Notes: generated by a model from the sequence alone, not told the origin. 64,000 nucleotides of DNA from Fibrobacteria bacterium (GCA_043745805.1 JAYTSD010000001.1:64001-128000); one strand, 5' to 3'. Numbered from the stretch's first letter, positions 11,170 to 42,105 are shown. Numbers and translations are program-made.

Positions 11170-11185
11170 GGCAAATGCCATGCCA
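11170..11185 (-). promoter_or_regulatory. sigma54 -24/-12 promoter for cheB copy 1
   Basis: Minus strand TGGCAT-GGCAT-TTGCC fits TGGCAC-N5-TTGC. Confidence 0.7.
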
Positions 11186-11255
11186 TGATTTAAAAAAAAG
11201 CACAATAGACACTTCTGAAGGTATTTTTGAGGTTACTGTAATGTTTTCGAAAATT

Positions 11256-11366
11256 AAGGGGTGGCTAAATAATCAACCCTTTAGGGCTTGATTCTAATAA
11301 GTCCAAGCTTTTCGGGTAGTTAAAGAAAAATGTGTTTTAGGCACTGATAAAAATTAGGCAGCCTTT
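11256..11366. promoter_or_regulatory. Putative enhancer (paired inverted boxes) upstream of cheB1 promoter
   Basis: aaggggtggctaaat (11256-11270) and aaaaattaggcagcc (11349-11363); 101-bp span as at the other two sigma54 promoters. Confidence 0.6.
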
Positions 11367-12121
11367 TGATCTGAAACCGAATCTGCTTTTTCTCTCTTGG
11401 AAGTTATTGTATTTAGATTTTTGAGATAATCTTCTATTTGCCGTGGAGATGGGGTTACGTCTACTTTGTTGATTTCGCGAGAAGAAAATATGACAAGTAA
11501 AAAGAAAAGAAAAAGTCCAATTACAATTTGCCCTGTAGTGCGACTTTCTACAGCTACACTTGCGCTCGCTTCATCTTGTTTATTTCTTTTCATAGCAAGG
11601 TTTACTGCAACATCAATTTTATTGCGATGTAACTTGTAAAGGGGCTCTATTTTGTTGTTTAAAATTTGTTCCGCAAGAAGTTTGTTTCCAGCTTCGATGG
11701 CAGGTAAAAATTCTTTTTCCATAATTTCCACTAATTGAAATCCAGGAATATAGGAATCGTTTGTTAGCGAGGTTTTGAGTTCATCATCGGGTAAAATTTT
11801 AACCCAAGTATTATGATTGAGCACGTAATCTACTTTCAATTTTTTCGCTTTGTTGAGTAATGTTTCCGTCTCTTGTATGTTACTGCTATGCAACAATTCA
11901 AAAAGGGTGAGGTAGGTTTCAACAAGGTATTCTGGCGGCGGCAGTATGTCCGCGATAACATCTTTGCCTTGCACAATCCGTTTATAATGCGGTCCATTCA
12001 CTCGAACTTCCTGAACGGTGTTGAGGCAATAGAGCCCATAAAGCAAAAAACAAAACAGGTAAATAATGGCCATCAGGGCTATCTTTGTTGTTGAATGGGA
12101 TTGGCGTGTGAAAAGTGCCAT
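11354..12121 (-). CDS. Chemoreceptor-type periplasmic ligand-binding domain protein with 2 TM and no signalling domain
   Basis: TM - VRVNGPHYKRIVQGKDVIADILPPPEYLVE four-helix sensor - TM - about 40-aa tail; RBS gaggt before ATG 12121. Confidence 0.7.
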   Translation of the reverse strand: MALFTRQSHSTTKIALMAIIYLFCFLLYGLYCLNTVQEVRVNGPHYKRIVQGKDVIADILPPPEYLVETYLTLFELLHSSNIQETETLLNKAKKLKVDYVLNHNTWVKILPDDELKTSLTNDSYIPGFQLVEIMEKEFLPAIEAGNKLLAEQILNNKIEPLYKLHRNKIDVAVNLAMKRNKQDEASASVAVESRTTGQIVIGLFLFFLLVIFSSREINKVDVTPSPRQIEDYLKNLNTITSKREKADSVSDQKAA

Positions 12122-12233
12122 GCTTACCTCAATGTATGATAGGTTCAATTATAACTCTTGAATCGCACAATCGCAAAATATTAAAATCTTAAATTGGAAA
12201 AGGCCTTCCTTCATGGACAATCCCTAAAATTCT

Positions 12234-15149
12234 ATGTCTGCAAAAGATAAAGATTTAAAAAATAAACCCAGTTTACCTTGGTGGACATGGGTATTGCCTT
12301 TACTTATCTTCCATTTTGGTACGGGCCTATCTCTTAATTTTCAGATTTCTCAACGCATGTCGCTGTGGTATTTACCTGTCCCTTTGGGATTATTTCTCAT
12401 TCATTGGTGGGGACCACGCGTTCTTTTAGGATTGTATTTAAATGCCTTACTTTGTGCGGGCTACTGGGGTTTTAATCATTGGTGGTTTTGGCCACTTTAT
12501 GCTTTACCCGAAACCCTGAAAGTCGGACTTTCTTGGTTGCTATTTACCAGAATTTTGAAAGGAAAAGTTTGGCTTCCTGATTTATCTAACATGTGGCGTT
12601 TCCTACTCTTTGGCATGATTACTCCATGTTTTCTCGGCAGTGTTTTCGGAGAAGCATTATTTATAGTCTTGGGTGATTTTCATCCCGAACACTGGTGGCA
12701 TGAGGCCTATGTGCAATTTGTGCTCGATATACTTTGCCCATTTGCTATCACTGTGCCGGCGCTCCTATTTGCCACCGCTTACATTGAAAAATTCAAGTTG
12801 TCTATGACACAAGGCGCGTATCCTTGCTCGGCGTTAGTATTATCAGGACGTATTACGCGGTTGATGATGTATGAAGTCATAGCTTTATTTTCAGGATTAC
12901 TAATTTTGAGTCTATGCGTTTCATTAGAAACGTATTGGTTCGTCTACGGTGTATTTTTGATTTGGGGGGCTTTACGTTTTGGTATTGGCGTGGCATCCAT
13001 TGGAACGATATGGACTATTTGTTTGGCAATATTGTTTCCCGCTTTATTATCTAATCATTTTGCATCCTTATGGTTGACTCGATCGGATTTGCTTAAAGTC
13101 AATTTGAATTTGGCAACGCTTTGTTTTGCAGCCTTAGTCGTTGGTCGTGCCTTAAGTGATGTCTTTCAAGAAATCGAAACGCGTAAACAGGCTGAATCCA
13201 GTTTAAAAATTAGCGAAAATAAATATCGACTATTATTTGAATCCGCTTCCGATGCCATTATTTTGGGAGATAAGGGAATAATATTCGATTGTAATAAACG
13301 CGCCTTGGAAATGCTTGGGGCCAAACTTGAAGACATTATTGGTTCACATTCTTCTCGTTTTTTTCAATCACAATTGCCCGATGGTAGCGATGCTGTAACT
13401 GTCATGTCCAAGTTACGGTCGGAAGCCTTGGATGGCCACCCTCAATTTTTCGAATGGAAAGTAAAACGCCTTGATGGCAGCTTGATCAATACGGAAATAA
13501 CCTTTAGAGGCGTGGATTTAGATGGGAAACGTATCATTATGGCCGTAATACACGATATTACGCAAAGAAAAAAGATGGAGCGGGCGGTTTTTGAAAGTGA
13601 ATATCGACATCGTACTTTGTTTGAATCTGCAAATGATGCCATTGTAGTTTCGGAAAATGGTTTGATATTGGATTGTAATCATCGCACCACCGAGCTATTT
13701 GGATTTACCCGTGAGCAAATGATAGGTTTTCCAGCCACTATGGGTTTTCCCGATTTCCAACCTAATGGAGTTCGGACTGCTGACTTAGTTCTCAGCCATC
13801 GTCTTGCGGCATTGGAAGGAACTCCGCAAAGCTATGAACTGTTACAAAAAAAAGCCGACGGTAGCACCTTTGAAACGGAAACTACTTTAGCCCCAGTAAT
13901 TTTAGAAGGGCGGCGTATTATCCAAGTGGTGATTCGCGATATTTCGCAGCGCAAAAAAATAGAAAGGGCTTTGGTGGAAAGCGAAGAGCGCTTTAGGCAA
14001 ATGGCCGAAAATATACAGGAGATTTTTTTCTTATTGGATAAAGCCACTCAAACCATGCTTTATGTCAGTCCGATTGCGGAATCTTTATTAGGTGTCCCTT
14101 TAGAAAATGTGATTAATCGACCTTTGGCAATTGACGAACGCATGCATCCGGAAGATAGGGAACGGGTAGGATTTTTTAAAGATGGGGCTTGGTATAAGCG
14201 TACATTCAATGAAGATTTTCGTTTTATTCGTCCCGACGGAGTAACTCGATGGTTACGGATGCGGACATTCTTGATTCCTGATAATGAAGGCCGTATTTAC
14301 CGTGTAGCAGGTGTGGCAACGGATATAACCGAATATAAAACCGCACAGGAAGAGACGCGCAATCATCAACAAAAGTTAGTGCAGGCCGATAAAATGAACT
14401 CCTTGGGACAAATGGTTTCTGGAGTGGCTCATGAAATCAATAATCCGAATAATTTGATAATGTTGAATGCGGATGTAATGGATACTTTTTGGAAACATTT
14501 ACGCCCTGCGCTTAGAGATTATTTTGCTCGCTATCCCGATTGGAAACTTGCGAATATTCCTTATGACAAAGCGGAAGGTAAATATGAAACTCTCTTGCAG
14601 GGGATTACGGGTGGTGCAAAGCGTATTAAAAATATAGTTGATAATTTAAAAGATTTTGCACGAGTGAATCATGGGGATCTTTCTGAATCAATCGTCATAG
14701 AAAAAGTTATCGCTGCTTCTATAGGGATTGTGGATCATTTAATTAGAAAATCTACGAATCATTTCCAGGTATTGAACGGTGAAAATATTCCTCCGATTTT
14801 AGGTAACTTTCAAAAACTGGAGCAAGTAATTATTAATTTAATTACTAATGCTTGCCAAGCCTTGGCATCGAGTTCCCATGCGATTCGTATTGAGACTTGG
14901 TTTGATAAAGAAAATGAAAGAGTAGGTATTCGCGTGGAAGATGAAGGAATAGGTATACCCGAGAATTTTTTGCGAATGGTTACCGATCCATTCTTTACCA
15001 CGAAACGAGATAGTGGAGGAACGGGTTTAGGGCTATCCGTTTCCTATGGAATTATTCGTGAACATAAAGGTACTTTGGAAATTCAATCCCAAGAAAATCA
15101 TGGAACCAAAGTGGAAATAATGTTACCTGCTAGGAATCCTAAGCTATGA
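12234..15149 (+). CDS. Sensor histidine kinase: MASE1-like membrane domain, 3 PAS, HisKA, HATPase
   Basis: Multi-TM N-terminus, three PAS/PAC repeats, H-box VAHEINNP, N-box NLITNA, DEGIG, PFFTTK, GTGLGL. Confidence 0.93.
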   Translation: MSAKDKDLKNKPSLPWWTWVLPLLIFHFGTGLSLNFQISQRMSLWYLPVPLGLFLIHWWGPRVLLGLYLNALLCAGYWGFNHWWFWPLYALPETLKVGLSWLLFTRILKGKVWLPDLSNMWRFLLFGMITPCFLGSVFGEALFIVLGDFHPEHWWHEAYVQFVLDILCPFAITVPALLFATAYIEKFKLSMTQGAYPCSALVLSGRITRLMMYEVIALFSGLLILSLCVSLETYWFVYGVFLIWGALRFGIGVASIGTIWTICLAILFPALLSNHFASLWLTRSDLLKVNLNLATLCFAALVVGRALSDVFQEIETRKQAESSLKISENKYRLLFESASDAIILGDKGIIFDCNKRALEMLGAKLEDIIGSHSSRFFQSQLPDGSDAVTVMSKLRSEALDGHPQFFEWKVKRLDGSLINTEITFRGVDLDGKRIIMAVIHDITQRKKMERAVFESEYRHRTLFESANDAIVVSENGLILDCNHRTTELFGFTREQMIGFPATMGFPDFQPNGVRTADLVLSHRLAALEGTPQSYELLQKKADGSTFETETTLAPVILEGRRIIQVVIRDISQRKKIERALVESEERFRQMAENIQEIFFLLDKATQTMLYVSPIAESLLGVPLENVINRPLAIDERMHPEDRERVGFFKDGAWYKRTFNEDFRFIRPDGVTRWLRMRTFLIPDNEGRIYRVAGVATDITEYKTAQEETRNHQQKLVQADKMNSLGQMVSGVAHEINNPNNLIMLNADVMDTFWKHLRPALRDYFARYPDWKLANIPYDKAEGKYETLLQGITGGAKRIKNIVDNLKDFARVNHGDLSESIVIEKVIAASIGIVDHLIRKSTNHFQVLNGENIPPILGNFQKLEQVIINLITNACQALASSSHAIRIETWFDKENERVGIRVEDEGIGIPENFLRMVTDPFFTTKRDSGGTGLGLSVSYGIIREHKGTLEIQSQENHGTKVEIMLPARNPKL

Positions 15150-15189
15150 ATTTTTTCTATCCTTTGCATAAGGGGATAAGGTAACTCCT

Positions 15190-16827
15190 ATGTTTCGCCC
15201 AAGTTCTTCTATCGCTTTAATGGTTATTGTAACAATTGTAACAGTTATTACCTTAATATTAAGCTTATTTGGGTTTTCTAATTATAGAGTAAATCAGGAA
15301 AGAGAATGGAAACAGCTTAATCAAGATCTTGCTGCCGAATCAGAACAGGCAGCGGTTTCACTGGCCTTACCCATTTGGAATATAGATAGACCACAAATCG
15401 AAAAAATCTTAGAAAGTGTCATGCTTAATCGTATGGTTTACGGATTGATTTTGGAGCTTGAAGACGAACACCACACGACAATTCTTAGAGATAGGGATGA
15501 GAAATGGAGGGTTCGTATACCAGGACATTCGATTGAACAGGCTGGTTTATTGACGAATTCGAATGCTATTGCGACTGGATCACAACTGCTAGGTCATGTT
15601 ACCGTTTATGGATCGGCAAAGTTTATTGAAACAAATTTGCGAGCCTTTTTGTATTGGACTATTGCCAGTATTTTGTTGTTGGACATAATTCTTTCTTTAG
15701 GATTGTATTTCTTACTTTGGTACTGGGTTTTTCAGCCTTTGAAGAAAATTGAAAGTTACGCTGTAGCCCTTAATCACTCTGGCTCTGCGACGATTGGGAT
15801 TTCGGGAGGTCGATTTTATGGTGAATTAGAAAGTCTGCGATCCCATTTGGAGCAAATGGTGGTTCAATTGAACATGCGTTATCTAGAATTACAGAAAGAA
15901 ACCAAACAGCGAAAATTGACAGAAACGGCCTTGCGGGAAAGCGATAATCGATTTCGGCAAATGGCCGAAAATATTGAGGAAATTTTCTTTTTAATCGATC
16001 AACCCACCGAAGCCTTACTTTATTTAAGTCCTATTTCAATTTCAATTTTAGGTTATTCTCCTGATGAAATTATTCCGCAATGGCAAGATTTTAAAAAATT
16101 CTGGAATACAGAGGATATGCAAAGAATTGGTTTTTATGATCATGGAGCTTGGTATAAAAAAGCCTTCAACGAGGAATTCCGTTGGAATCGTCCCGATTGG
16201 AAACCGGCAAATATTCCTTATGATAAGGCGGAAGAAAAATATGAAACTCTTTTGCAGGGGATTTCGGGCGGGGCCAAACGTATTCAAAATATCGTAGGTA
16301 GTTTGAAAGATTTTGCACGCCTTGACGCAGGTGAAATTTCCGAGCCTATTCTGATAGAAAAGGTTATTGAAGCGGCCATTGGAATAGTCGATCATTTGAT
16401 CAAAAAATCAACTCATCATTTTAAGGTTGAAATTGGCAATAATATTCCTAGAATAAAAGGACGTTTTCAAAAACTAGAACAAGTTATTATTAATCTTATT
16501 ACTAACGCCTGCCAGTCATTGGAATCCCGCGAGAAGTCCATTTCCATTCACGTTTGCTATTCAGAAGATATCAAGAGGGTATGTCTTCGCGTAGAAGATC
16601 AAGGTTGTGGTATTACTGCAAATCTACTCAATAAAGTTACCGATCCTTTTTTTACCACTAAGCGAGATATGGGTGGAACCGGCCTCGGTCTTTCGGTAAC
16701 CTATGGAATTATTAAGGAACATCAAGGAGCCATAGAAATTCAATCCATTGAGCATTTGGGAACAAAGGTGGAAATTTTGCTTCCCATTTACCCAGAAAAA
16801 AATAAGGGGAATAATTATGCACCATGA
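15190..16827 (+). CDS. Histidine-kinase paralogue with in-frame internal deletion removing PAC and the H-box (pseudo-kinase)
   Basis: TM-periplasmic-TM-HAMP-like, partial PAS, then a direct jump RPD|WKPANIPYDK; HATPase boxes intact; no AHEINNP. Confidence 0.85.
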   Translation: MFRPSSSIALMVIVTIVTVITLILSLFGFSNYRVNQEREWKQLNQDLAAESEQAAVSLALPIWNIDRPQIEKILESVMLNRMVYGLILELEDEHHTTILRDRDEKWRVRIPGHSIEQAGLLTNSNAIATGSQLLGHVTVYGSAKFIETNLRAFLYWTIASILLLDIILSLGLYFLLWYWVFQPLKKIESYAVALNHSGSATIGISGGRFYGELESLRSHLEQMVVQLNMRYLELQKETKQRKLTETALRESDNRFRQMAENIEEIFFLIDQPTEALLYLSPISISILGYSPDEIIPQWQDFKKFWNTEDMQRIGFYDHGAWYKKAFNEEFRWNRPDWKPANIPYDKAEEKYETLLQGISGGAKRIQNIVGSLKDFARLDAGEISEPILIEKVIEAAIGIVDHLIKKSTHHFKVEIGNNIPRIKGRFQKLEQVIINLITNACQSLESREKSISIHVCYSEDIKRVCLRVEDQGCGITANLLNKVTDPFFTTKRDMGGTGLGLSVTYGIIKEHQGAIEIQSIEHLGTKVEILLPIYPEKNKGNNYAP

Positions 16828-18262
16828 AATTTCAATACTTATTGTAGACGATGAAGAGGATATTCTTACTTCTGAAGAATTGGTATTACAGATGAATGGC
16901 TATACTAATATTACTACTTGTTCGGATTCGCGAAAAGTGGAAAGTATTCTGAATAAGAATCCGAATAGCCTCGCCATTTTGGATATTACTATGCCGCAAA
17001 TAGACGGTATAGAACTTCTTTCTCGGATTAAACACAATCATCCGCAAGTAACGGTGGTAATGATGACCGGATTAAATGATGTGGAAACAGCGGTTCGCTG
17101 TTTAAAGAATGGGGCTCTTGATTATATCCTTAAACCCTTCGATCAAAATCGGTTTTTGACTTGTGTAAAAAAAGCGTTAGAGCATCATATTGTTTGTGAT
17201 GAATCTATTCGTTTAGCACGCGGTGTACTCGAAGAGAATGTTATAAATCCCAAAAGTTTTTCTGCAATTGTTACTCAGGAAAGACGATTGGTTAATATTT
17301 TTAAATATATCGAAGCCGTAGCGCCAACGGGTTTATCAGTTCTGTTAACAGGGGAAACCGGTGTAGGTAAAGAATTATTTGCTAACGCGGTGCACTTGGC
17401 AAGTGGTCGAACTGGTGAGTTTGTTTGTGTGAATAGTGCTGGGATTGACGACGCCATGTTTAGCGATTCACTTTTTGGCCATGTTTCTGGCGCTTATACA
17501 GGTGCGCAAAAGGGTCGCAAAGGTCTTATTGATCGCGCTAAAAATGGAACCTTATTTCTTGATGAAATAGGAGACATGAAACCGGAAACTCAAGTTAAAC
17601 TATTACGTTTATTACAAGAAGGAACCTTCTACCGCTTAGGTCAAGAGACTGAAGAAAGAACCAATGCTAGGATTGTGGCGGCCACTAATCGTTCCTTAGA
17701 GGAATTACAGAATGATCCCCGTTTCCGAAAAGATTTATTTTATCGCTTAAAAGCGCATCATGTATATATCCCTCCCCTGCGGGAAAGAATGAATGATGTG
17801 CCTTTACTTACCAATAGGTTTTTAGCCCAATGCGCCCAAGAACAAAACAAAGCGAAACCCACTCCCCCTCCAGAACTAGATATTTTACTTTCCAATTATC
17901 ATTTTCCGGGAAATGTACGCGAGTTACGTGGTTTGGTTTACGATGCGGTCAGTAGGCATCAGGGTGGAGTTTTATCCTGTAGCTCTTTTAAAGATGCAAT
18001 CGGAACGAAACATTTAAGTAACGGTAACGTGAATAAAATGATTCCATTTAGTAAAGAAATACTTTTTCCATCCCCACTTCCTTCGGTTCGAGAAATAGAA
18101 AATGCACTTATTCGCGAAGCATTAAAACGAACCGGTGGTAATAAATCCTTAGCTTCGGAAATGATTGGAATGGCCCGCCAAACCTTTAGAACTAGAGTTA
18201 AGGAATTGCAGCCTCCTTGGGAAAATGCTGATAACATGGTAGAAGTAGAGGGAATAGACTAA
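16817..18262 (+). CDS. NtrC-family sigma54-dependent response regulator (REC-AAA+-HTH)
   Basis: IVDDE/LDITMP/ILKP, Walker A GETGVGKE, GAYTGA loop, FLDEIG, RIVAATN, FPGNVREL, C-terminal Fis-type HTH; ATG 16817 follows aagggg. Confidence 0.95.
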   Translation: MHHEISILIVDDEEDILTSEELVLQMNGYTNITTCSDSRKVESILNKNPNSLAILDITMPQIDGIELLSRIKHNHPQVTVVMMTGLNDVETAVRCLKNGALDYILKPFDQNRFLTCVKKALEHHIVCDESIRLARGVLEENVINPKSFSAIVTQERRLVNIFKYIEAVAPTGLSVLLTGETGVGKELFANAVHLASGRTGEFVCVNSAGIDDAMFSDSLFGHVSGAYTGAQKGRKGLIDRAKNGTLFLDEIGDMKPETQVKLLRLLQEGTFYRLGQETEERTNARIVAATNRSLEELQNDPRFRKDLFYRLKAHHVYIPPLRERMNDVPLLTNRFLAQCAQEQNKAKPTPPPELDILLSNYHFPGNVRELRGLVYDAVSRHQGGVLSCSSFKDAIGTKHLSNGNVNKMIPFSKEILFPSPLPSVREIENALIREALKRTGGNKSLASEMIGMARQTFRTRVKELQPPWENADNMVEVEGID

Positions 18263-18301
18263 GTCTCCACACATTTTGAGTTTAAAATAGGGAATAAAGT
18301 C

Positions 18302-18409
18302 GTGGCTAAATTTGGTCAATGACCAATTTTTATAAGCTCATAAATTCAATGGAGGCCCGTCTTATCTAGGGTTTGCTCATTTTACAATAAAAATTAGCCA
18401 CCCTTTTTT
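18302..18409. promoter_or_regulatory. Putative enhancer (paired inverted boxes)
   Basis: gtggctaaatttggtca (18302-18318) and aaaaattagccaccctttttt (18389-18409); GTGG..CCAC span 100 bp. Confidence 0.65.
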
Positions 18410-18496
18410 ACCACACAATTGGAAATATGTTTTTTTGGGAGGCCTTAAAACGAGCTTAAAGGCGATTTTATTCAAATTAATTGCAATAAAGAAAAA

Positions 18497-18512
18497 TGGC
18501 ACAGGGCTTGCA
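18497..18512 (+). promoter_or_regulatory. sigma54 -24/-12 promoter
   Basis: TGGCAC-AGGGC-TTGCA is a perfect consensus, 54 bp before ATG 18566. Confidence 0.88.
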
Positions 18513-18565
18513 TTGTAATCTCCTTGTAAAAGTGTTTCACGACGAATTGTTACTAAGAGGTTATC

Positions 18566-18895
18566 ATGGTAGGTTTGGAATTGACAAGAGAATGTCAGAC
18601 GGAATTTGAAGATGCCATTTTACAAATGGCACAAGAACTTATTCCTATTGCCCAATTAGTTTCTGATTTTCCTGAATGGAGTAAAGCTTTAGCGAAGGGA
18701 TTTTTTGACCTCTCCATTTTATCCCAAAAGGGTGGAGAAAAGAAGATTTATTTTTCTGCAAGAGCATTTTCTCAAATATTAAATCAATTACAAAAATCTC
18801 CGGAAGAAGATATTCCCTTTATCCTAAGTAAAGGAATTGAATTTTTGAATTCCATAATTATTGAAAATAAAATAAACTCCATGAGGAGTTTATAA
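18566..18895 (+). CDS. Small helical hypothetical protein, possibly a degenerate Hpt-like bundle
   Basis: RBS aagagg; 109 aa with a helical pattern; contains no His; translationally coupled to cheW. Confidence 0.7.
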   Translation: MVGLELTRECQTEFEDAILQMAQELIPIAQLVSDFPEWSKALAKGFFDLSILSQKGGEKKIYFSARAFSQILNQLQKSPEEDIPFILSKGIEFLNSIIIENKINSMRSL

Positions 18896-19437
18896 TGGTT
18901 GATTTATTTGGAGAAGAATATTCACCTTCTAGAGGTGCAAAAATGGTAGATGGTAGATATTTCACTTTTCGTTTAGGGGAAGAGATATTTGGAATAAGCA
19001 TACTTAAAGTACAAGAAACCTTAAGTGTTAATACCTTAAAGCAAGTTGCAAATTTACCTAAATATTTTAGTGGCATAACTACTTTAAGAGGACAACCTAT
19101 TCCCGTAATAGATTTACGTTTGAAATTCGGATTGGAAAGTCGCACGGCCAATAACTCTCCCTTTTCCCTAATTGTCGTGCAGCTTTCTACACCCATTATA
19201 TTCGGTAAAAAATCAGAAAGTGCTTTAGCGCTTGCAATTGATGAAGAAACCGACATGGTTAATATATTGAATGGACAAATCGAATTAAAATCCATTCGTG
19301 GTCAAAATCGGAATGGAACTTTACTATTCGGTATTGCGCGTATCCAACAAAAAGTTATTCGCTTATTGAATATTGATCAAATAATAAGCTTAGAAGATTG
19401 GGCAATACTTTTGAATTTGGAAATGGTTACGGAATAA
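18895..19437 (+). CDS. cheW: CheW-like coupling protein (divergent copy)
   Basis: YFTFRLGEEIFGISILKVQE, GITTLRGQPIPVIDLRLKFG, LLNIDQI. Confidence 0.85.
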   Translation: MVDLFGEEYSPSRGAKMVDGRYFTFRLGEEIFGISILKVQETLSVNTLKQVANLPKYFSGITTLRGQPIPVIDLRLKFGLESRTANNSPFSLIVVQLSTPIIFGKKSESALALAIDEETDMVNILNGQIELKSIRGQNRNGTLLFGIARIQQKVIRLLNIDQIISLEDWAILLNLEMVTE

Positions 19438-19438
19438 T

Positions 19439-20548: not shown

Positions 20549-20668
20549 AAACCCTCCTAAAAAAGGTGAAAAGTACAATGTGCTGCTGAATAAACTCAAC
20601 CGCATAAGCCAGACATTTCTTATTTTTCCGTCGCGCTGAAGAATCGGCGGACAAATTAGGAGAGGCTT

Positions 20669-24222: not shown

Positions 24223-24388
24223 GCTTAGAACATAAAAAAAACTCTCCGTATTCCACCAAAAAGCTGGTTGGATGTTGATTTTAGGGCATTATTTCCTAAA
24301 TGTTGCACTTTCGTTTAGACAAAAAATCAAAAATAAAACACCATAGCTAAAAATCTCAGTTATCTTTTTAGCCATCAAAAGGAAATCT

Positions 24389-25330: not shown

Positions 25331-25340
25331 TTTTTACACA

Positions 25341-25389
25341 GGGTACAAAAAAACTTTGATGAAATTTCCATCAAAGTTTTTTTGTACCC
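25341..25389. terminator. Perfect 21-bp inverted repeat, probable bidirectional terminator
   Basis: gggtacaaaaaaactttgatg / catcaaagtttttttgtaccc between convergent trxB and the lemA operon. Confidence 0.8.
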
Positions 25390-26833: not shown

Positions 26834-26836
26834 AAT

Positions 26837-28727: not shown

Positions 28728-28750
28728 ATTAAATAGCTTCAAGGGCCATC

Positions 28751-32182: not shown

Positions 32183-32186
32183 TTTA

Positions 32187-32744: not shown

Positions 32745-32745
32745 T

Positions 32746-33462: not shown

Positions 33463-33509
33463 TTTCGAAGTTTTTAAATTTTTAAAAGCAGAAATATTTC
33501 AAAGTATTA

Positions 33510-34580
33510 TCAATTTTCCCCATTCGCCATTGCAGCGTTTGATTTTTTAGCAGAGGCTAAAATCTGACTTGGAATATCGTTTAAGGGTAAAATATGTTCC
33601 GCGGCCCCAAGTTGAATGGCTTCTTTGGGCATCCCAAATACCACACAGCTTTTTTCGTCTTGGGCAATTGTCGAAGCCCCGCCATTGCGCATTTCCAGTA
33701 AACCCGTAGCCCCATCGGTTCCCATGCCTGTAAGTAGGACTCCGATGGCATTACCTTTTGTTGCCCGTGCAACGGACTTAAAAAGAATATCTATGGAAGG
33801 GCGATGCCGTGATACTAAGGGTCCATCTTTGATTTCCACCCGATAGGTATCGCCTGAGGGACGTAACACCATATGCATATTTCCCGGTGCAATTAGGGCG
33901 CGACCAGGAATAACTTCGTCCCCATTGGCGGCCTCTTTTACTTCAATCGAGCATAAATTATTTAACCGCTCCGCAAAAGAATTCGTTAGATATTCTGGTA
34001 AATGTTGTACCACAAGAATAGGAGGGGATGCCGCTGGCATTTTTGTTAAAATATCGTGTATAGCTCGAGTTCCTCCTGTGGAGGCACCAATAGCGATTAA
34101 TTTTTCAGTGGGTCCATTCCATGGAGCAGGCTTGTCAACAACTGCCTGCGTTTTCCACCAGCTATTTCCAATTTTTGCGCTGGCCGCAGCAATAATAGCA
34201 TCTCGCAATAAGAGAGTCATTTCTTCAGCGGATTTTCCAGACTTAGGCTTACATAAAACATCAATGGCCCCATAGGATAAAGCTTGCATTGCGATTTCAC
34301 TACCCTTGGGCGATAGAGAGGAAACAATAATTACCGGCATGGGACGATAATGCATAAGTTTCTTTAAAAAAGTAAGCCCATCCATATGAGGCATTTCTAT
34401 ATCCAAAGTAATCACATCAGGAGAAAGTTGTAAAATTTTATCACGCGCTACAAAAGGATCCGGTGCGGTTCCTACTACTTCAATAAGCGGATCTTTGGAT
34501 AAAGCATTTTGGAGTATGTCTCTTATAGTCGGAGAGTCATCTACTATTAATACTTTGATTTTATTTTTTAGGGTTGTCAT
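33510..34580 (-). CDS. cheB: Chemotaxis methylesterase CheB (copy 2)
   Basis: REC plus GASTGG, VQHLP, HRPSID, TGMGTDGA. Confidence 0.96.
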   Translation of the reverse strand: MTTLKNKIKVLIVDDSPTIRDILQNALSKDPLIEVVGTAPDPFVARDKILQLSPDVITLDIEMPHMDGLTFLKKLMHYRPMPVIIVSSLSPKGSEIAMQALSYGAIDVLCKPKSGKSAEEMTLLLRDAIIAAASAKIGNSWWKTQAVVDKPAPWNGPTEKLIAIGASTGGTRAIHDILTKMPAASPPILVVQHLPEYLTNSFAERLNNLCSIEVKEAANGDEVIPGRALIAPGNMHMVLRPSGDTYRVEIKDGPLVSRHRPSIDILFKSVARATKGNAIGVLLTGMGTDGATGLLEMRNGGASTIAQDEKSCVVFGMPKEAIQLGAAEHILPLNDIPSQILASAKKSNAAMANGEN

Positions 34581-34588
34581 GGTGAAAC

Positions 34589-35068
34589 CTATTTTTCAGT
34601 TATAGCAGGTTCATTAATAGAGCATCGAATAAGCAATCCTTGATCATCTATGCTTAGTCTTAAAGTGTCAGGATCATTTAATAGTTCATTACCGGTCAGT
34701 GGATTCCAAAAGGTAACCTTGGGAATAGATAAAGAAAATACTACCTGCTCACCCGCATAGGTAGATAAAATATGCCCGCAGGCTACATTGAGCAATTCTT
34801 TCAAAGCATCTAATGATTTGGTAGGAAGATCTGGATCATCAATATCTTCACCGAGTATATTGGCTGCTAATTCAATGGCTATTTTTTGAGGTACCACTAA
34901 AATAAGTTCTCCAGTTGTATGTCCAGAAAAAGACATTTCGGCACAAAAATATTCAGTATCTGGATCAGGAAAAATTTCAGGTTCTTCAGGTTCGGTAAAT
35001 AAAAAAGCTTGTTTTTCTAAAACTCCCGAAAGTACTTGATAGAGTAATTTAGTTGGAATGTTACGCAT
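34589..35068 (-). CDS. cheX: CheX-like phosphatase
   Basis: FSGHTTGEL...LAANILG...DALKELLNVACG (E-x-x-N motif). Confidence 0.8.
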   Translation of the reverse strand: MRNIPTKLLYQVLSGVLEKQAFLFTEPEEPEIFPDPDTEYFCAEMSFSGHTTGELILVVPQKIAIELAANILGEDIDDPDLPTKSLDALKELLNVACGHILSTYAGEQVVFSLSIPKVTFWNPLTGNELLNDPDTLRLSIDDQGLLIRCSINEPAITEK

Positions 35069-35447
35069 CGAATACCCCCAAAATATCTTGTATGGTAGAT
35101 TTTAAATTTTCCGGACGAAAAGGTTTGCGAATAAAAGCTTTAATACCTTTTTCATGAAGCTCTTGTATACGCGTAGCGCTTCCTTCTGTGGAAACCATAA
35201 TAATTGGGATAGTTTTATACAGTTCATTTTCCTGCATTTTATTCACCAATTCTATGCCTCCCATAATAGGCATATTCACATCAGCAAAAACTAAATCAAT
35301 CCATTCCTTGCCTAAAATTTCTAAGGCTTCAACGCCATTACCCGCTTGATAAAGTGTGCCGATGGGCAATTCGCTTAACCCTAAGGTTTTACAAATCACC
35401 GCGCGTACTGTTTCTGAATCATCTACAATTAGCATATTTAGCGCCAT
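35061..35447 (-). CDS. cheY: CheY-like single-domain response regulator
   Basis: IVDDS, ADVNMP, VSTEG, IRKPF. Confidence 0.9.
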   Translation of the reverse strand: MALNMLIVDDSETVRAVICKTLGLSELPIGTLYQAGNGVEALEILGKEWIDLVFADVNMPIMGGIELVNKMQENELYKTIPIIMVSTEGSATRIQELHEKGIKAFIRKPFRPENLKSTIQDILGVFDA

Positions 35448-35475
35448 ATTGTTTGCCTCTTCTGTTTATTTAATT

Positions 35476-35952
35476 TCATAATTTTCTTTCGCTTCCGGCG
35501 ATTTTCAAAACCGTTATTCCCGTATCAAGATGTAAAGACATGGTGCGTGGAACCGATCCACCTACATCTTCACCAGAAATGAGAATATTGTTTTTCCAAA
35601 GAACTTTTCTCAAAACGGTATAATTGCGTTCGCCAATATTAAAAGTTTTATTGTCATCTAATATTTGAGATCCACCCGCAACTTTAGCGATTATGGTTTT
35701 ACGGGTAGCACCTAGATCAAACATTTTTTGCATAAAGGCCGAAACACCAGTGTCCACATAAAGAAAAGGATTATTATCTGCCTTCTCCGGATTTATTTTT
35801 GACATGGGCATCATGCAATGTATGAGGCCTCCGCAACGGATATTGGGATCATAAAGAGTAATTCCCAAACAGGAACCTAAAGAATAAGTGATTAGCGTAT
35901 CGGTAGGATTATTCGATATCGCTAGATCAGCTATGCCAATAACAATATTCAT
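35476..35952 (-). CDS. cheD: Chemoreceptor glutamine deamidase CheD
   Basis: TYSLGSCLG, GGLIHCMMP, FNIGERN, EDVGG..RT. Confidence 0.95.
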   Translation of the reverse strand: MNIVIGIADLAISNNPTDTLITYSLGSCLGITLYDPNIRCGGLIHCMMPMSKINPEKADNNPFLYVDTGVSAFMQKMFDLGATRKTIIAKVAGGSQILDDNKTFNIGERNYTVLRKVLWKNNILISGEDVGGSVPRTMSLHLDTGITVLKIAGSERKL

Positions 35953-35953
35953 T

Positions 35954-36754
35954 TTAACCTTTGAAATAAACTGCAGGTTTAAGGTATTTAAATTGATGAT
36001 TTATAGAGGATAGGCTTTCAGAATGCCCCACAAAAAAAATACCGCCAGGTTTTAGTAAACGATAAATGTCGTTTATCAATCGAGTGCGGACGGTGTTATC
36101 AAAATAAATCATTACATTTCGGCAAAAAACCATATCAAATGGGCCTCGCATAGGGAAGGGAGGTGAAGATAAATTTATTCGAGAAAAAGTTACCCTATTG
36201 CGAATTTCATCCGTCACTTGTATTTGTTCTTTATCGGGAGTAGAGGAAAAATATTTTTTGTATTCCTTGGGAATAGCGGCTACCCGTGATTTTTCATACA
36301 CCCCATTTTTGGCGAGACTTAAAACACGGGTGGAGATATCGGTTGCTAATATTTTAATATCCGCAGATTCCCCATGCATAACCTCTGCAAGGGTCATGGC
36401 TAAAGAATAGGGTTCTTCTCCTGTTGAGCTAGCGGCCGACCAAAAGCGAAATTTTTTCTGACCACGATCCAACCATTTAGAAAAAACCTTGGAGGCGTAG
36501 TCAAAATGTTCTGACTCTCGAAAAAAATGGGTTATATTAGTAGAAATGGCATCGATCATTTCCACCATTTCATTTTCATTTCGTTCCTCTTTTATAAATT
36601 TCAAATAGTCATCAAAGGAATTCATTTCCAATTTACGCATACGCTTACCAATGCGCGAAGTGACTAAAGATTCTTTTCCTTTATCCATACAAATACCAGT
36701 TTTCGTATAAATGAAGTCGCTGAAATTTTGAAAAGATTTTCCCGAAAGTTCCAT
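35954..36754 (-). CDS. cheR: Chemotaxis methyltransferase CheR
   Basis: STNITHFFRE, WSAASSTGEEPYSLAM, ATDIS, FCRNVMIYFD, GHSES. Confidence 0.96.
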   Translation of the reverse strand: MELSGKSFQNFSDFIYTKTGICMDKGKESLVTSRIGKRMRKLEMNSFDDYLKFIKEERNENEMVEMIDAISTNITHFFRESEHFDYASKVFSKWLDRGQKKFRFWSAASSTGEEPYSLAMTLAEVMHGESADIKILATDISTRVLSLAKNGVYEKSRVAAIPKEYKKYFSSTPDKEQIQVTDEIRNRVTFSRINLSSPPFPMRGPFDMVFCRNVMIYFDNTVRTRLINDIYRLLKPGGIFFVGHSESLSSINHQFKYLKPAVYFKG

Positions 36755-36787
36755 GTTACTGCCTTAAAGTTTTGAAAGCGTTGTAGC

Positions 36788-38449
36788 TTAAAATTCTTTT
36801 AACTCCGCTTCGGTAAGAGGAATAACGGCTTCTGCATTTTCCGAATTAGATTGTCTTGCGACGGCTTGCCATCCTCCAGATTTTGCGACCACGCGATTCG
36901 TTTCATGAGTTCTACTATTGAAATGACTTTTGGTTTTGTTCAGACTTGATTTTTGAAAGGAGGGTTTCATGGCATTTCCATAGGAGACTGGCATTTCTCT
37001 CGAAACATTTTCACCATTAGAATTTCCTCTGACAATATTCACTAGTATGTTAACCATTCCATTCAATTCTTTGGCTTGAGCGGATAACTCCTCACTGGCG
37101 GAAGCCGATTCTTCCGCACTCGAAGCATTTGCTTGTGTAAGCTTATCCATTTGTGTTACTGCTGTTCCGATTTGTTCAATCCCTTTAGATTGTTCTTCGC
37201 TGGCAGAGGATACATCGCCAATAAGCTGGGTAAGGCTTTGTACATTATCCACAATTTGACTTAATAAGTTGGCCACTTCTTGAGAAACTAGTACTCCATT
37301 ATCGGCATTTTTTTGTGACTCTTCAATTAAAGCCGAAGTATTTTTTGCGGCCTCAGCGCTGCGTTGTGCTAAATTACGAACTTCCTCAGCAACGACTGCA
37401 AAGCCTTTGCCTGCATCTCCTGCACGCGCCGCTTCGACAGCGGCATTCAAAGCCAATAGATTGGTTTGAAAGGCAATTTCATCAATAGTTTTTACAATTT
37501 TGGCGGTTTGATCGGAAGAGGTTTTGATTTGGTTAATCGCTGAGCCCATCTTTTTCATAGTTCCCATACATTTTTCTAAGGCCTGACGAGTTGAATTTGC
37601 CATGCTATTCGCTTGTTTGGAACTCTCGCTATTTTGTTTGGTCATGGAAGACATTTCTTCCAAAGATGCAGAAGTTTCTTCTAAAGAAGAAGCCTGTTCA
37701 CTAGCCCCTTCAGCCATTTGTTGGCTGGTTTGAGAAACTTGATTGGATGCAGAGGAAACCTGCTCGCTACCTTCAGTAAGGCTGCTGATAACATTATTAA
37801 GGGCATTAGAAATGGAGCGACTTAGTAAAACACCAATGGCAGTACCCACAGCCAATGCTAAAAGTAATCCAATAACAATACCGCTTTTCGCAGAATTTAC
37901 TGCTTGGGTGATTTCTTTTCCGAAAATTTTGCCATTATCATGGTTATAGTCAGTTAAAACCTGCAGAGATTCCTTATATTTTTCAAATACCGAAATGTAT
38001 TGGTTTGTGAACATAGCTATTGCTTCTTTGGACTTGCCGGATTTGCTCATATTTAAAATGGTATTTCGCATTTCCCCGTTTTGTATTTTTAATGGGCCAA
38101 TAGCAGAAAATAATTCTTGGTCTTTACCGAGGTTAATAGTTGCTTCATAGGCTTTTAAAAACGCTCCAGTTTTCTCATTGTTATCAGCAATTCGCTTTTC
38201 TATTGCTTCTTTTTCTTCCTTTGTTTCTGACAATAAACTTTGTCCGAGTAAAGACACATTTGTAAGTGCTAAGGCTTCAGCACCCGATATTGCCGCTACA
38301 CCAGGCAAAGCATCTTCAGTAACTTTTTTTGATACTTCTTTGATGATGACTAAACGAGAATAAGCAAAAGCACCTAAACAACCCGCTATTAATAGAACTA
38401 TAAAAAACCCCAAATATAATTTGGCACTCAAACTAAAACCTTTTAACAT
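36788..38449 (-). CDS. Methyl-accepting chemotaxis protein (4HB sensor, short signalling domain)
   Basis: Two TM, four-helix periplasmic domain, [35 protein letters not shown], methylation helices [14 protein letters not shown]. Confidence 0.95.
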
Positions 38450-38485
38450 ACCTACTCCTTTATTGATTTTTAATTAAAAATATTT

Positions 38486-38998
38486 TTATGCTATTTTTTC
38501 AACTAATCCAATTTCTTTATCAGACAGCACTTTATCCACATCAAGCAGCATAATAACCTTATGGACCACTTTACCCATGCCCAAAATAAAATCTGTATTC
38601 ACACTTGCCCCAAAGGCTGGTGCAGATTCAATTTGGTCAATAGGAATATTTAATACCTCAGAAACTTCATCGACAATAAGCCCCATGATAATGTTGGTGG
38701 TAGCTAGGTTTACCTGTACCACTATAATACAGGTCCTTTCGGTATCTTCTAATCCTTGCATTTCAAATTTATTGCGTAGTTCAATAACGGGAATAACTTT
38801 GCCTCTTAAATTAATAACCCCTCTTACAAAGGAAGGCGTTCGAGGAATATGTGTTACGGTCATCATACCAATTATTTCTTGCACTTTTAAAATCTCAATA
38901 CCATAAATTTCTTTACCTAACTGAAAGGTCAGGTACTTACCTCCTTTAGCAGCAATTGAAGGTGAATTTTTATGTTCTGTGAGAGTGTCTACGGCCAT
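38486..38998 (-). CDS. cheW: Chemotaxis coupling protein CheW
   Basis: KYLTFQLG.E.YGIEILKVQEI, GVINLRGKVIPVI, GLIVDEVSEV. Confidence 0.96.
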   Translation of the reverse strand: MAVDTLTEHKNSPSIAAKGGKYLTFQLGKEIYGIEILKVQEIIGMMTVTHIPRTPSFVRGVINLRGKVIPVIELRNKFEMQGLEDTERTCIIVVQVNLATTNIIMGLIVDEVSEVLNIPIDQIESAPAFGASVNTDFILGMGKVVHKVIMLLDVDKVLSDKEIGLVEKIA

Positions 38999-39027
38999 AT
39001 TTTCCTTTCCAATAATATTTTCAGATA

Positions 39028-41649
39028 TTAATTTTGCATAGTTAAATGGGTTTCATTGGCAACCGGAAGCCAGTCTTGATTTGTTACCTGTTTTGAGGGC
39101 TTACCCTTTTCCGCCAACATACTTTTAAGTAAACCATCGACATCTAGAATTATTCCCACACAACCATCCGAAAGAATAGTGCCGCCTGTTAATCCGGGAA
39201 TATTTTTAAAAGTTTCCCCTAAACTTTTAATCACTGTTTGTTGTTGCCCCATTAATTCATCAACAATAAAGCCCGTTTGTTGATGATTGGATTCAACAAT
39301 TACAGCTAATTTTAGCCGTACATCATTGGATTTAATTGGTATTTGGAAAAAATCTTGCAAAGAAAAAAGTGGAATTAAGCTTCCATTTAAAGAAAGCATT
39401 TCTCCTTTTTCCACACAAGTTGTAATATCCTTAGGATTGATGGCCACAATACGCACTACCGAAAGGGTAGGGAAAATATAACGCTCTCTTCCAACACGAA
39501 CGACCATGCCATCGATAATGGCAAGCGTGAGCGGCAACCAAATACTAAAAGTGGTACCGACATTTTTTTCAGAATGAATTTCAATACGGCCACGTAATAA
39601 TTCAATATTACGTTTTACTACATCCATGCCAACACCGCGACCGGATACTTCAGTAATTTCGCTGGCGGTAGAAAATCCCGCTTCAAAAATAAAACCCCAA
39701 ATATCTTTGTCAGTTAAATTACTTTCATCTTTCACCAAGCCTCTTTCTTTAGCCTTGGCAAGAATGGAATCGCGATTTAAACCTCGACCATCATCTTTGA
39801 TTTCCAAACAAACATTGCCCCCTTTTTGAAATGCGCTTAGTTTGACTTGGGCAATAGGGGGCTTCCTATATCGTACTCGATCTTCTGGATTTGTTTCAAT
39901 TCCATGATCAACGGAATTACGTAACATATGAACTAATGGATCCCCAATTCTGTCTACAACAGTTTTATCGAGTTCAATTTCTTCACCAAAGCAAACAAAC
40001 TCCACATTTTTTCCACTTTTTTTTCCAAGATCTCGAACCAGACGAGACATTTTTTGAAACAATGGTCTTACAGGAACCATGCGTAAGGACGTTCCCATAT
40101 TTTGCAGTTCACGTGTAATTTTGTCTAATTGCATTAATTGTTGCAGTAACTTAGGAGACACCTTTCTTTTTAATTCTGGAGACTGTACAATCATGGTTTC
40201 CACAATAACCAATTCCCCAATATTGTCTAAAAGGCGATCTAAGCGATCAGCCTCTACTTTAACTGTCTCTTTGATAGTTAGGGCCGAGTTTTCTTTATCT
40301 GCTTGCTTTTGCTCCCTTAATGCATGCGTTACAGTTTGTGCATCGACACTACCATGTTGCACCAAAATTTGCCCAAGGGGCACATGTCTTTGTGATTCAT
40401 TTTGTAAAGCAATAGCTTGAACAATAATTTCTTTTTCCACGGCACCCGATTTTATTAAAATATCACCCAATTTACTTCCGGGAATTACGGTGGTTTTTTC
40501 TTTTGATGATTTCGTGATAGCTTCGCCCGCATTCGCTTGACGAATCTTTTTTAATAGCAAACTTATTACTGCATCTTGAGGTCTATCACCGTGGCCTTCT
40601 TTTACATGACCCACAAGCGTTTTCATCATCCCCACTGATTCAAAGACACAATCCAACAATTCGCCTTGAAGAACAATGAGCGCTTCACGAGCCTTGTCTA
40701 AAAGACTTTCCGTTTCATGAGCCAACGTTTTGATGGTGCTTAATTCTAAAAATCCTGCCAATCCTTTTATACTATGAAAGGCACGAAATACGGCGTCTAA
40801 AGACTCTTTTCGATGAGGATCCACTTCTAAATCCATAAGATGTACATCGGAGACATCTAAATGCTCTAGAGCTTCCACAATAAAATCCGCAAGTATGCTC
40901 GGATCCATTTCCAAAGCCGAGCTTGTAGGCCCTTCAATTATTTCATGGCCAGAAAGGTAATTTTGGTCCTCAAACCTTTTTAAAAATGAATTAATTGCCT
41001 CGGGTTGTATTGTCTTGGAAGTGTAACTTTTGAAAGTGCTACCCAACCAATCTAAAACTTTTAATAAAACATCTGTATTATTAGGTTTGGCCTTTTCAAT
41101 AAAACCTTCGGTAGCATGACAAATTTTTTCAACATCATCTAAACCCAAAATAGCGGATTCACCTTTTAGGTTATGGAGAATTCCCTGTAGTTGTCGGAGC
41201 GTCGATGGGTCCGCAGATTTTTCTAAAGCTAAAACACAACTTTCCATTTCTTCTAAGCGACTATCTTGACGTGATAAAAAATCAGAAAATATTTTTTCAT
41301 CTACATTGGCCGGTAATCCTCGAACGACTTCAATTTCATCCGGTAAGTTTTTTCTTGACGAAGGTTCGGCCTCTTCTGGAAACAAATCTTGCAGGGCTTC
41401 TAAATTCTTTGTGACATTGTTTAAGGTATTTTCTTTTTCTATACCCACCGCCATATTAAGGTTTTCCAGAAGATTTTGCGTAAACTTACAGAGTTCAGTA
41501 GCTTGTGAGTTACCTTCTTTTAAAGCCCAATCATAAACTTCTTTTAAGCGAAGATGAATTTGAGCCTGGGCAGCAAAATCATCATGAGCAATTAAAACAA
41601 AATCTTCAATTAGGGCGCGAATTTTTTGTAAGCCGATTTTTTCATTCAT
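39028..41649 (-). CDS. cheA: Chemotaxis histidine kinase CheA with two Hpt domains and MshEN-like motif
   Basis: Hpt motifs ILHNLKG and AFHSIKG, dimerisation LDNIGELVI, DPLVHMLRNSVDHG, DDGRG, SGRGVGMDVV, CheW domain; alternative ATG at 41694. Confidence 0.95.
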   Translation of the reverse strand: MNEKIGLQKIRALIEDFVLIAHDDFAAQAQIHLRLKEVYDWALKEGNSQATELCKFTQNLLENLNMAVGIEKENTLNNVTKNLEALQDLFPEEAEPSSRKNLPDEIEVVRGLPANVDEKIFSDFLSRQDSRLEEMESCVLALEKSADPSTLRQLQGILHNLKGESAILGLDDVEKICHATEGFIEKAKPNNTDVLLKVLDWLGSTFKSYTSKTIQPEAINSFLKRFEDQNYLSGHEIIEGPTSSALEMDPSILADFIVEALEHLDVSDVHLMDLEVDPHRKESLDAVFRAFHSIKGLAGFLELSTIKTLAHETESLLDKAREALIVLQGELLDCVFESVGMMKTLVGHVKEGHGDRPQDAVISLLLKKIRQANAGEAITKSSKEKTTVIPGSKLGDILIKSGAVEKEIIVQAIALQNESQRHVPLGQILVQHGSVDAQTVTHALREQKQADKENSALTIKETVKVEADRLDRLLDNIGELVIVETMIVQSPELKRKVSPKLLQQLMQLDKITRELQNMGTSLRMVPVRPLFQKMSRLVRDLGKKSGKNVEFVCFGEEIELDKTVVDRIGDPLVHMLRNSVDHGIETNPEDRVRYRKPPIAQVKLSAFQKGGNVCLEIKDDGRGLNRDSILAKAKERGLVKDESNLTDKDIWGFIFEAGFSTASEITEVSGRGVGMDVVKRNIELLRGRIEIHSEKNVGTTFSIWLPLTLAIIDGMVVRVGRERYIFPTLSVVRIVAINPKDITTCVEKGEMLSLNGSLIPLFSLQDFFQIPIKSNDVRLKLAVIVESNHQQTGFIVDELMGQQQTVIKSLGETFKNIPGLTGGTILSDGCVGIILDVDGLLKSMLAEKGKPSKQVTNQDWLPVANETHLTMQN

Positions 41650-41890
41650 TTGGACGCTTTTCGTTTCAGGCAAAATAAGTTTACAGAGTATCATATCAAA
41701 ATGTCAAGTATTGGTGGAAAAAAAATAAATTTTTTTTTAGCAAAACGACTTTGATAATATTAATGAAATTATTCAAATGCATTTTAATGTTCGTGTTAAA
41801 TATTGTTATAATTATCACAATAATTATCAAAAAAATAGCATCAAATATAGAGTGATTTAAAAATGATTACGCGACTACTAAATAAAAGTC

Positions 41891-41906
41891 TGCAAAGATT
41901 ATGCCA
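41891..41906 (-). promoter_or_regulatory. sigma54 -24/-12 promoter for the cheAW-mcp-RDYXB operon
   Basis: Minus strand TGGCAT-AATCT-TTGCA. Confidence 0.82.
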
Positions 41907-41990
41907 TTATGATTAGTTGCAGTACGACTCAAGTAATCATAGCTTAAAGACAAAATAACGGAAAAATAAAAGCCTCTTCATAGTTGAGGT

Positions 41991-42105
41991 AAAAAAAAGG
42001 GGTGGATAAAAATGAGCAATAAATCCAACGTATTGTTATAAGTCTCGTACTCAGTGTGTGTTAGCAAAATGACTAAAATTAACCAAAATTGAAATTTATC
42101 CACCC
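41991..42105. promoter_or_regulatory. Putative enhancer (paired inverted boxes)
   Basis: aaaaggggtggataaaaatgagca (41995-42018), tgactaaaattaacca (42070-42085), aaatttatccaccc (42092-42105); GTGG..CCAC span 102 bp. Confidence 0.65.

Follow-up and report, generated by a model that had tools for sequence, protein, structure and literature searches.

A helically phased upstream module at three sigma-54 promoters of chemosensory operons in a Fibrobacteria bacterium, and its candidate NtrC-type activator

Background

NtrC at glnAp2 is a two-component activator with upstream enhancers whose sites are compact dyads, and at the upstream activator sequences of NifA a dependence on the face of the helix has reportedly been shown by engineered insertions. 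For NorR, we know of no inverted distant site that has been described. The general scheme of NtrC-type activators with upstream enhancers is laid out in the consulted part of a published account (PMC7057263), and the accessible portion of another reports three obligatory enhancer sites for NorR at norVW, with about 130 bp of DNA that may wrap around the hexamer (PMC2831303). Among chemosensory systems, sigma-54 promoters have been predicted before che clusters in Geobacter, in a paper whose available sections also cite sigma-54 control of flagellar synthesis in R. sphaeroides (PMC2577667). The present study concerns a 64,000-nt stretch of a Fibrobacteria bacterium genome (GCA_043745805.1, JAYTSD010000001.1:64001-128000; hereafter the window, meaning the whole stretch that was analysed), in which three regions (regions 1, 2, and 3) each carry a sigma-54 promoter before chemosensory (che) genes and, upstream of it, a module of about 110 bp made of short sequence boxes.

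As judged from the sequence, the three regions are probably enhancer-dependent sigma-54 promoters of one chemosensory regulon, and the NtrC-type activator encoded within the cluster is the most likely protein to activate them. An initial annotation had already grouped the three promoters as one sigma-54 regulon with a shared upstream module, and this module proved to be rare in the genome and kept in relatives. In the proposed mechanism, the PAS histidine kinase adjacent to the activator gene would phosphorylate the activator, which in its phosphorylated form would bind the boxes of the module, assemble its ATPase ring there, and reach the sigma-54 polymerase via DNA looping, and cheB1, the operon of a four-helix-bundle protein, cheW, and a REC-PP2C-like protein, and the cheA operon would be switched on together.

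The locus resembles the NtrC system in its REC-AAA+-HTH_8 activator with an adjacent histidine kinase, in having several sites about 100-230 bp upstream of the -24/-12 element, and in the looping model, whereas its sites are single asymmetric boxes, two to three direct and one inverted, over a fixed length of about 110 bp, and its targets are che genes. As with the NifA sequences, the site lies on one face of the helix, which is deduced here from indels of about 11 bp that arose naturally between species. Like NorR, as far as the consulted text describes it, the module offers several closely spaced sites seemingly used together, and its length is near the ~130 bp given for NorR; unlike the window module, NorR uses GT-N7-AC dyads that all fall inside 66 bp, and its sensor is described there as a GAF domain rather than a two-component receiver. 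The accessory chemotaxis-like clusters of Geobacter likewise have sigma-54 promoters in genomes with several che systems; the sections consulted assign no cognate activator or enhancer motif to them, in contrast to the conserved enhancer and candidate activator found here. In M. xanthus Che3, the histidine kinase CrdS and the NtrC-like activator CrdA are genetically tied to a che cluster, as here, but in the part of the report available Che3 lacks CheY, CrdA is the output, and developmental genes are the targets (PMC3147164), whereas CheY and CheX are both encoded in the window cluster and its own che operons are the predicted targets. Our literature searches found no published account of sigma-54-dependent che genes in Fibrobacterota. 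As a type of regulation the locus is familiar; what is new is the binding motif, the layout of its sites with direct and inverted non-dyad boxes over a fixed 110 bp, a regulon of three operons assigned in this phylum, and the natural phasing series.

Promoters and upstream boxes in the window

The genome (3.95 Mb, 40% G+C, 50 contigs) encodes a single copy of rpoN (Sigma54_DBD match, 207.8 bits). Direct reading of the sequence confirmed the three sigma-54 elements before the three che units at the positions first proposed (Table 1), with no mismatch to TGGCAC-N5-TTGCW in region 2, one and two mismatches in the other two regions, and GG/GC doublets 10 nt apart. A site scan of the window revealed no further good intergenic sigma-54 site elsewhere in it and none before the kinase-activator genes.

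In the direction of transcription, each promoter was preceded by a proximal box, TTWKCCACCCYTT, and in all three regions a related box in inverted orientation was located 91-93 bp upstream of the proximal one. As read, these distal inverted boxes are TTAGGCAGCC (11354-11363), GTGGCTAAA (18302-18310), and TTATCCACCC (42097-42106). The inverted pairs of the initial annotation are present in the same orientation to each promoter, while their right-hand coordinates were 2-3 nt short, the true spans being 103, 102, and 105 bp in regions 1, 2, and 3, respectively. Their description as two inverted boxes was too simple, as the module in fact comprises tandem boxes i and ii (and iii in relatives) together with an inverted proximal box. 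Single boxes lack dyad symmetry: they are asymmetric, with the inverted partner about 92 bp away. An inverted-repeat search recovered the pair in region 2 (23-nt arms, 74%) and region 3 (14-nt arms, 93%) and missed that of region 1, whose distal box has degenerated as an inverted copy. This box nonetheless matches the conserved box i of the relatives; it overlaps the stop codon of the membrane-protein gene that lies upstream. Box ii of region 1 was read from the stack of modules anchored on the proximal box and is absent from the regular-expression listing of boxes. In region 2, the tail of box i and box ii also form a local palindrome, AAATTTGGTCA/TGACCAATTTT, at 18308-18330, with 11-nt arms 1 nt apart.

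Rarity of the combined pattern

The single 9-mer GTGGMTAAA is common, with 215 copies in the genome. Strict pairs (GTGGMTAA...TTAKCCAC within 200 bp) numbered only four genome-wide out of 217 x 192 single boxes; those at 92 and 94 bp belong to window modules, and the remaining two (contig C4, 150 bp; contig C44, 33 bp) are without a sigma-54 site. The C4 pair was rejected as a member of the regulon, since it appears to lie within coding DNA and has no sigma-54 site. When box and promoter were combined (CCACCCYT-N61-91-TGGCAY-N5-TTGC), the genome yielded exactly three matches, all of them window promoters, against none in the reversed control. Over 201 genomes of the phylum, the same pattern gave 19 matches versus three in the control. 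Among 63 sigma-54-like sites of the genome with at most one mismatch, the box was found only at the two qualifying window sites, the remaining window promoter having two mismatches and thus falling outside this set. A loose scan (sigma-54 site with at most two mismatches, relaxed box) gave seven matches versus seven in the control, that is, noise level, and the extended box context was seen only at the three window sites; therefore, no credible fourth member of the regulon was found in this genome.

Beyond these genomes, a metagenome scan for CCACCCYTT-N60-90-TGGCAY-N5-TTGC retrieved at least 118 stretches, and among 80 loci searched by tblastn none had che neighbours and only weak paralogues of the activator were seen. 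On metagenome contigs L216 and L202, similar TTTTTATCCACC boxes with sigma-54 sites precede small Cys-rich proteins, judged by eye to be probably metal-binding, and these boxes probably belong to an unrelated regulon with a partly common motif. Contig C67 of genome G059 carries two near-identical promoters 1.9 kb apart (L145, L150), with GGATTAATCCACCCTTT 87 bp before TGGCATGGCTATTGC. The genes behind these promoters are not che genes but encode proteins whose starts resemble signal peptides, and the promoters may represent a related regulon in another family.

Conservation in related genomes

The relatives comprised four sister-genus genomes with activator orthologues of 71-76% identity and a fifth genome found via the first small gene of operon 2; their loci have 60-64% G+C, compared with 40% in the window genome, and the G043 locus ends at a contig end. 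The close relatives of the activator came from metagenome-assembled genomes labelled Fibrobacteres or Fibrobacteria. In all five, tblastn placed the same genes in a single cluster, with the genes of the PAS kinase and of the NtrC-type activator at its centre. From promoter P1, cheB-cheX-cheY-cheD-cheR are read on the minus strand; the membrane protein, PAS kinase, and activator genes follow in that order in the middle; P2 then precedes the four-helix-bundle gene, cheA, cheW, and mcp genes, and P3 an mcp and the REC-PP2C-like gene. In the window genome this cluster is split into three units 20 kb apart, each of which retains its promoter and module.

In the ~124 kb of relatives' DNA examined, 14 sigma-54-like sites were detected, all of the -24/-12 kind and all at P1, P2, or P3. 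The orthologous P1 promoter, TGGCATGGnnnTTGCC, was kept before cheR in 5/5 relatives, and the region 2 promoter (P2) was likewise conserved in 5/5. CCACCC occurred upstream in 12 of these 14 promoters and CCGCC in the same context in the other two, both from G015. The initial annotation had proposed conservation in related genomes as a check, and sigma-54 site and box were indeed kept together at all 14 promoters. A 15th module was found in G013 (L152) before a paralogue of the cluster membrane protein, with its own sigma-54 promoter, and over the two genera the proximal box was located 69-134 bp before TGG in 18/18 promoters, two of them with the CCGCC variant. The activator gene of G002 has been moved away from P2 by an insertion of 4.4 kb, yet the module is still found at the promoter, indicating a promoter element rather than a 3' element of the activator gene. 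At P1 of G009, G002, and G043 (L125, L129, L133), that is, in 3/5 relatives, the cheR ATG lies 13-15 nt past the -12 GC, so a sigma-54 transcript would be nearly leaderless.

Module architecture and helical phasing

When anchored on the proximal box, the 15 sister-genus modules aligned without gaps over about 110 bp. Box i (GCGCCTAATTT-like) lies 93-95 bp before CCACCC in the relatives and 91-93 bp in the window, and box ii (CCGGCYAAAATCGG) 76-78 and 74-76 bp, respectively. In the relatives, box iii (GCCTAAC) follows 18 bp past box ii, then a weaker middle element and finally the proximal box, ATCCGAWTTnnn-CCACCCCTTT, which is related to box ii in inverted orientation. The tandem boxes, two in the window genome and three in the relatives, share a consensus of approximately sSGsCYAAWWT and are 17 bp apart. 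Between genomes of 40% and >60% G+C, the length of the module was kept within 3 bp, with spacers that have diverged completely.

The distance from CCACCC to TGG in the relatives was 69 (once), 80 (eight times), 91 (three times), 112, 123, or 134 bp, distributed as 69, 80, 80, 91, and 134 at P1, 80, 80, 80, 91, and 91 at P2, and 80, 80, 112, and 123 at P3. These distances fit 80 + 10.7k, with a vector strength of 0.99 at a period of 10.7-10.8 bp that was equalled by 0/20,000 random sets of six values drawn from 60-140, and without the two G015 variants the remaining values (69, 80, 91, 112, 123) still fall on the lattice. Since orthologous promoters differ between species by steps of about 11 bp, several independent indels have kept the helical face, and the box holds a fixed helical position relative to the promoter, as would follow if the box-bound protein must meet the polymerase on one face. 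In the window, the distances of 79, 99, and 99 bp (regions 1, 2, and 3) differ by 20 bp, in agreement with the two helical turns or so of the initial annotation; with the window distances added, the Monte Carlo fraction was 0.00035.

Candidate activator and competing explanations

The activator carries the complete set of NtrC-type domains (PF00072, 95.3 bits; PF00158, 188.8 bits; PF02954, 39.7 bits). Its receiver Asp is intact, within LDITMP, and conserved in the alignment with orthologues, and its recognition helix, GMARQTFRT, is identical across two genera. GAYTGA is present in the window activator and in 4/4 aligned close orthologues, a Tyr at this position of GAFTGA being a naturally occurring variant according to the part of the literature source consulted (PMC7057263). 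The NtrC-type regulator beside a PAS kinase that the initial annotation described was found in the same cluster in every relative having the module. As the PAS kinase adjoins the activator in 5/5 relatives, it is the presumed partner.

On the evidence of synteny, the activator of the cluster is the most likely protein to bind the boxes. Its gene lies directly upstream of P2 in the window genome and in 4/5 relatives (4.4 kb away in G002), and among the tested cluster genes it alone had a recognised DNA-binding Pfam domain. A family survey found pattern matches in four sampled genomes with an activator orthologue, in addition to the window genome, and in 0/17 without one, a tally that counts the unpublished G021 as negative. 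Moreover, distant che-linked homologues of the activator (45-54% identity) are again accompanied by related half-sites, followed by a sigma-54 site. In G193, TTACCACCCCTT (half-site CCACCCCTT) is found 81 bp before TGGCAT-N5-TTGC; in G091 and G028, respectively, GTGGAAAA-N3-TTTTCCAC(CCC) and ACCGGTAAA-N3-TTTACCGGT come after the homologue, and G123 has two GTGKTAA...TTACAC dyads 86 bp apart. These homologues combine the recognition helix TRQTLNN with compact dyads and the window lineage has split asymmetric boxes, differences that are consistent with co-evolution of protein and site.

Several points weigh against the proposed regulon or its assignment to this activator. Genomes have either the entire cluster or none of it, and co-occurrence therefore cannot single out the activator among its paralogues, nor separate it from any factor common to these lineages, and as proof of the binder it was rejected. 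The genome gave at least 37 matches to a sigma-54-activator query. Classical HTH_8 sites are dyads, which the single boxes are not, and in region 1 the distal box makes a poor inverted match. The window distance of 99 bp is 2.4 bp off the lattice of the relatives. The relaxed pattern, which matched exactly once within 260 bp at each of the relatives' promoters, and the variant boxes of G015 were defined after the data were seen, and the relatives are kin, so promoter counts overstate independent support. The paralogues, the asymmetric boxes, and the block-wise co-occurrence would all suit a real enhancer that is bound by another sigma-54 activator or by an accessory factor from outside the cluster, with the neighbouring activator controlling something else. 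We consider this unlikely, given the position of the activator gene beside P2, its standing as the only Pfam-recognised DNA-binding protein of the conserved cluster, and the recurrence of related half-sites and che genes beside homologous activators in other families.

A circuit like that of M. xanthus Che3 would add to the proposed regulon rather than replace it: the Che pathway would have the activator as an output, whose receiver would take input from CheA as well as from the PAS kinase, and the three promoters would exert feedback on the genes of the pathway itself. The link of CrdA, an NtrC homologue and the Che3 output, and the CrdS kinase to Che3, as given in the consulted part of that report (PMC3147164), and the location of kinase and activator inside the che cluster in 6/6 genomes make such a circuit a serious possibility, but it is less likely than not, as Che3 is without CheY, whereas the window cluster has CheY, CheX, and the REC-PP2C-like protein as ordinary outputs. 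That the boxes work by folding into a cruciform or an RNA stem, or belong to a small mobile repeat or an RNA gene, rather than by binding a protein, is highly improbable. The perfect inverted cores of 8 and 11 bp in regions 2 and 3, where a C/A change in one arm is mirrored in the other, would fit a structure; however, the arms of region 1 do not pair, and in the relatives box i and the proximal box are both conserved without being complementary. Furthermore, only three promoter-linked copies exist in the genome, which argues against a mobile repeat such as a miniature inverted-repeat transposable element, an Rfam search of 9000-44000 gave no match in the three regions, and neither an RNA nor a mobile element would be expected to keep a helical phase with the promoter. 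Chance similarity of AT-rich intergenic DNA, for which the abundance of single 9-mers and the noise level of the loose scan might be cited, is excluded by the combined pattern (three matches versus none in the control) and by its retention at 60-64% G+C, where the length of the module is fixed and its distances follow a 10.7-bp lattice.

If the regulon of the cluster activator holds, it provides a testable cis-regulatory code for Fibrobacterota, a phylum for which our searches returned no account of sigma-54 regulation; the code consists of a motif, a regulon of three operons, and a candidate activator and kinase. It would also illustrate how a two-component system embedded in an accessory chemosensory system can turn on that whole system at once. 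The regulatory module outlasted the splitting of the cluster into three loci. The natural 10.7-bp lattice is unusually clean comparative evidence for a face-of-helix constraint at enhancer-dependent promoters. A further, rather unlikely extension is a wrap-around enhancer, in which one activator ring would sit on three to four non-palindromic half-sites over about 110 bp with the DNA bent or wrapped. The tandem boxes would then occupy one end of the module and the inverted box the other, and the ancestors of the module would be compact palindromic sites such as remain beside homologous activators in sister families. If true, nature would here offer an instance of the DNA-wrapping assembly that has been proposed, not shown, for NorR, and the lattice from species to species would be a ready-made phasing series.

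Genes of the proposed regulon and other cluster proteins

Table 1. Promoters, boxes, and genes of the three regions (positions counted from the first nucleotide of the window)
Feature	Position	Strand	Sequence or basis	Remark
Sigma-54 promoter, region 1	11170..11185	minus	TGGCAT-N5-TTGCC	before cheB1; read directly
Proximal box, region 1	11258..11269	minus	TTTAGCCACCCC	CCACCC 79 bp before TGG
Box ii, region 1	11334..11344	minus	GTGCCTAAAAC	gap-free alignment with relatives' box ii in proximal-box-anchored stack
Box i, region 1	11352..11363	minus	GGCTGCCTAATT	92 bp before CCACCC; distal box of the initial annotation
Box i, region 2	18302..18313	plus	GTGGCTAAATTT	91 bp before CCACCC
Box ii, region 2	18320..18331	plus	TGACCAATTTTT	74 bp before CCACCC
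Proximal box, region 2	18394..18405	plus	TTAGCCACCCTT	core TTAGCCACCC 18394-18403; CCACCC 99 bp before TGG
Sigma-54 promoter, region 2	18497..18512	plus	TGGCAC-N5-TTGCA	before four-helix-bundle/cheW/REC-PP2C-like operon; perfect consensus
Sigma-54 promoter, region 3	41891..41906	minus	TGGCAT-N5-TTGCA	before cheA-cheW-mcp-cheR-cheD-cheY-cheX-cheB operon
Proximal box, region 3	41997..42010	minus	TTTATCCACCCCTT	core TTATCCACCCC 42009..41999; CCACCC 99 bp before TGG
Box ii, region 3	42073..42086	minus	TTGGTTAATTTTAG	76 bp before CCACCC
Box i, region 3	42095..42108	minus	AACGGGTGGATAAA	93 bp before CCACCC
NtrC-type sigma-54 activator	16817..18262	plus	Pfam	REC, AAA+ (GAYTGA loop), HTH_8; candidate box binder
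Membrane PAS histidine kinase	12234..15149	plus	Pfam	3 PAS, HisKA, HATPase, weak MASE1
Second kinase paralogue	15190..16827	plus	HisKA profile positions 32-66 only, E 0.0025	incomplete HisKA
cheB1	10048..11157	minus	Pfam	REC + CheB methylesterase
Operon 2	18566..20548	plus	Pfam and structure prediction	three genes, below
Four-helix-bundle protein (operon 2)	18566..18895	plus		
CheW (operon 2)	18895..19437	plus		
REC + SpoIIE/PP2C-like (operon 2)	19439..20548	plus		
Operon 3	33510..41694	minus	Pfam	cheA, cheW, mcp, cheR, cheD, cheY, cheX, cheB2

The initial annotation allowed for one or more PAS kinases feeding the activator. The second kinase, a paralogue of the C-terminal half of the PAS kinase, lacks about 100 residues around the phospho-acceptor helix, and therefore one kinase rather than two is probably involved. 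Furthermore, the second kinase was found only in the window genome and not in the clusters of the five relatives. The membrane protein of the cluster (264 residues, window 11354-12148) has two membrane helices flanking a helical outer domain and is conserved in the cluster.

The first protein of operon 2 had been called histidine phosphotransfer (Hpt)-like, an identity that is ruled out by the lack of a conserved His across six orthologues and of a Pfam Hpt match even at E 1. This 109-residue protein is a generic four-helix bundle with a confidently predicted fold (predicted local distance difference test score, pLDDT, 88), for which Foldseek returned designed bundles as the best matches, CheA P1 (1tqg) at E 0.41, and no specific match. 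In the relatives, its gene lies directly before cheA, and their CheA has its own Hpt domain. The SpoIIE match of the REC-PP2C-like protein (22.1 bits) is under the Pfam cut-off of 25.

The genome also has a gene for flagellar FlhA and two CheA genes, the second of which lies on another contig (C8:35390-35572, in a 778-residue frame) without the box-plus-promoter pattern. The window system is therefore one of two, and the wording of the initial annotation, which spoke of the main cheA operon and the whole chemosensory system, overstated its scope. The window CheA (39028-41694) has about 260 additional N-terminal residues with a second Hpt match, and the CheA of the relatives aligns from residue 262 only. 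A predicted AT-rich leader of about 185 nt (41695-41879), far longer than at the other two promoters, extends from the promoter to the cheA ATG. The start of cheB1 is probably downstream of the sigma-54 promoter rather than at the listed TTG 11205; the sole in-frame start past the predicted transcript start is a GTG about 3 nt downstream (11155-11160). Immediately downstream of operon 2, the window carries a gene for RapA, the RNA polymerase recycling ATPase, at 20669-23599.

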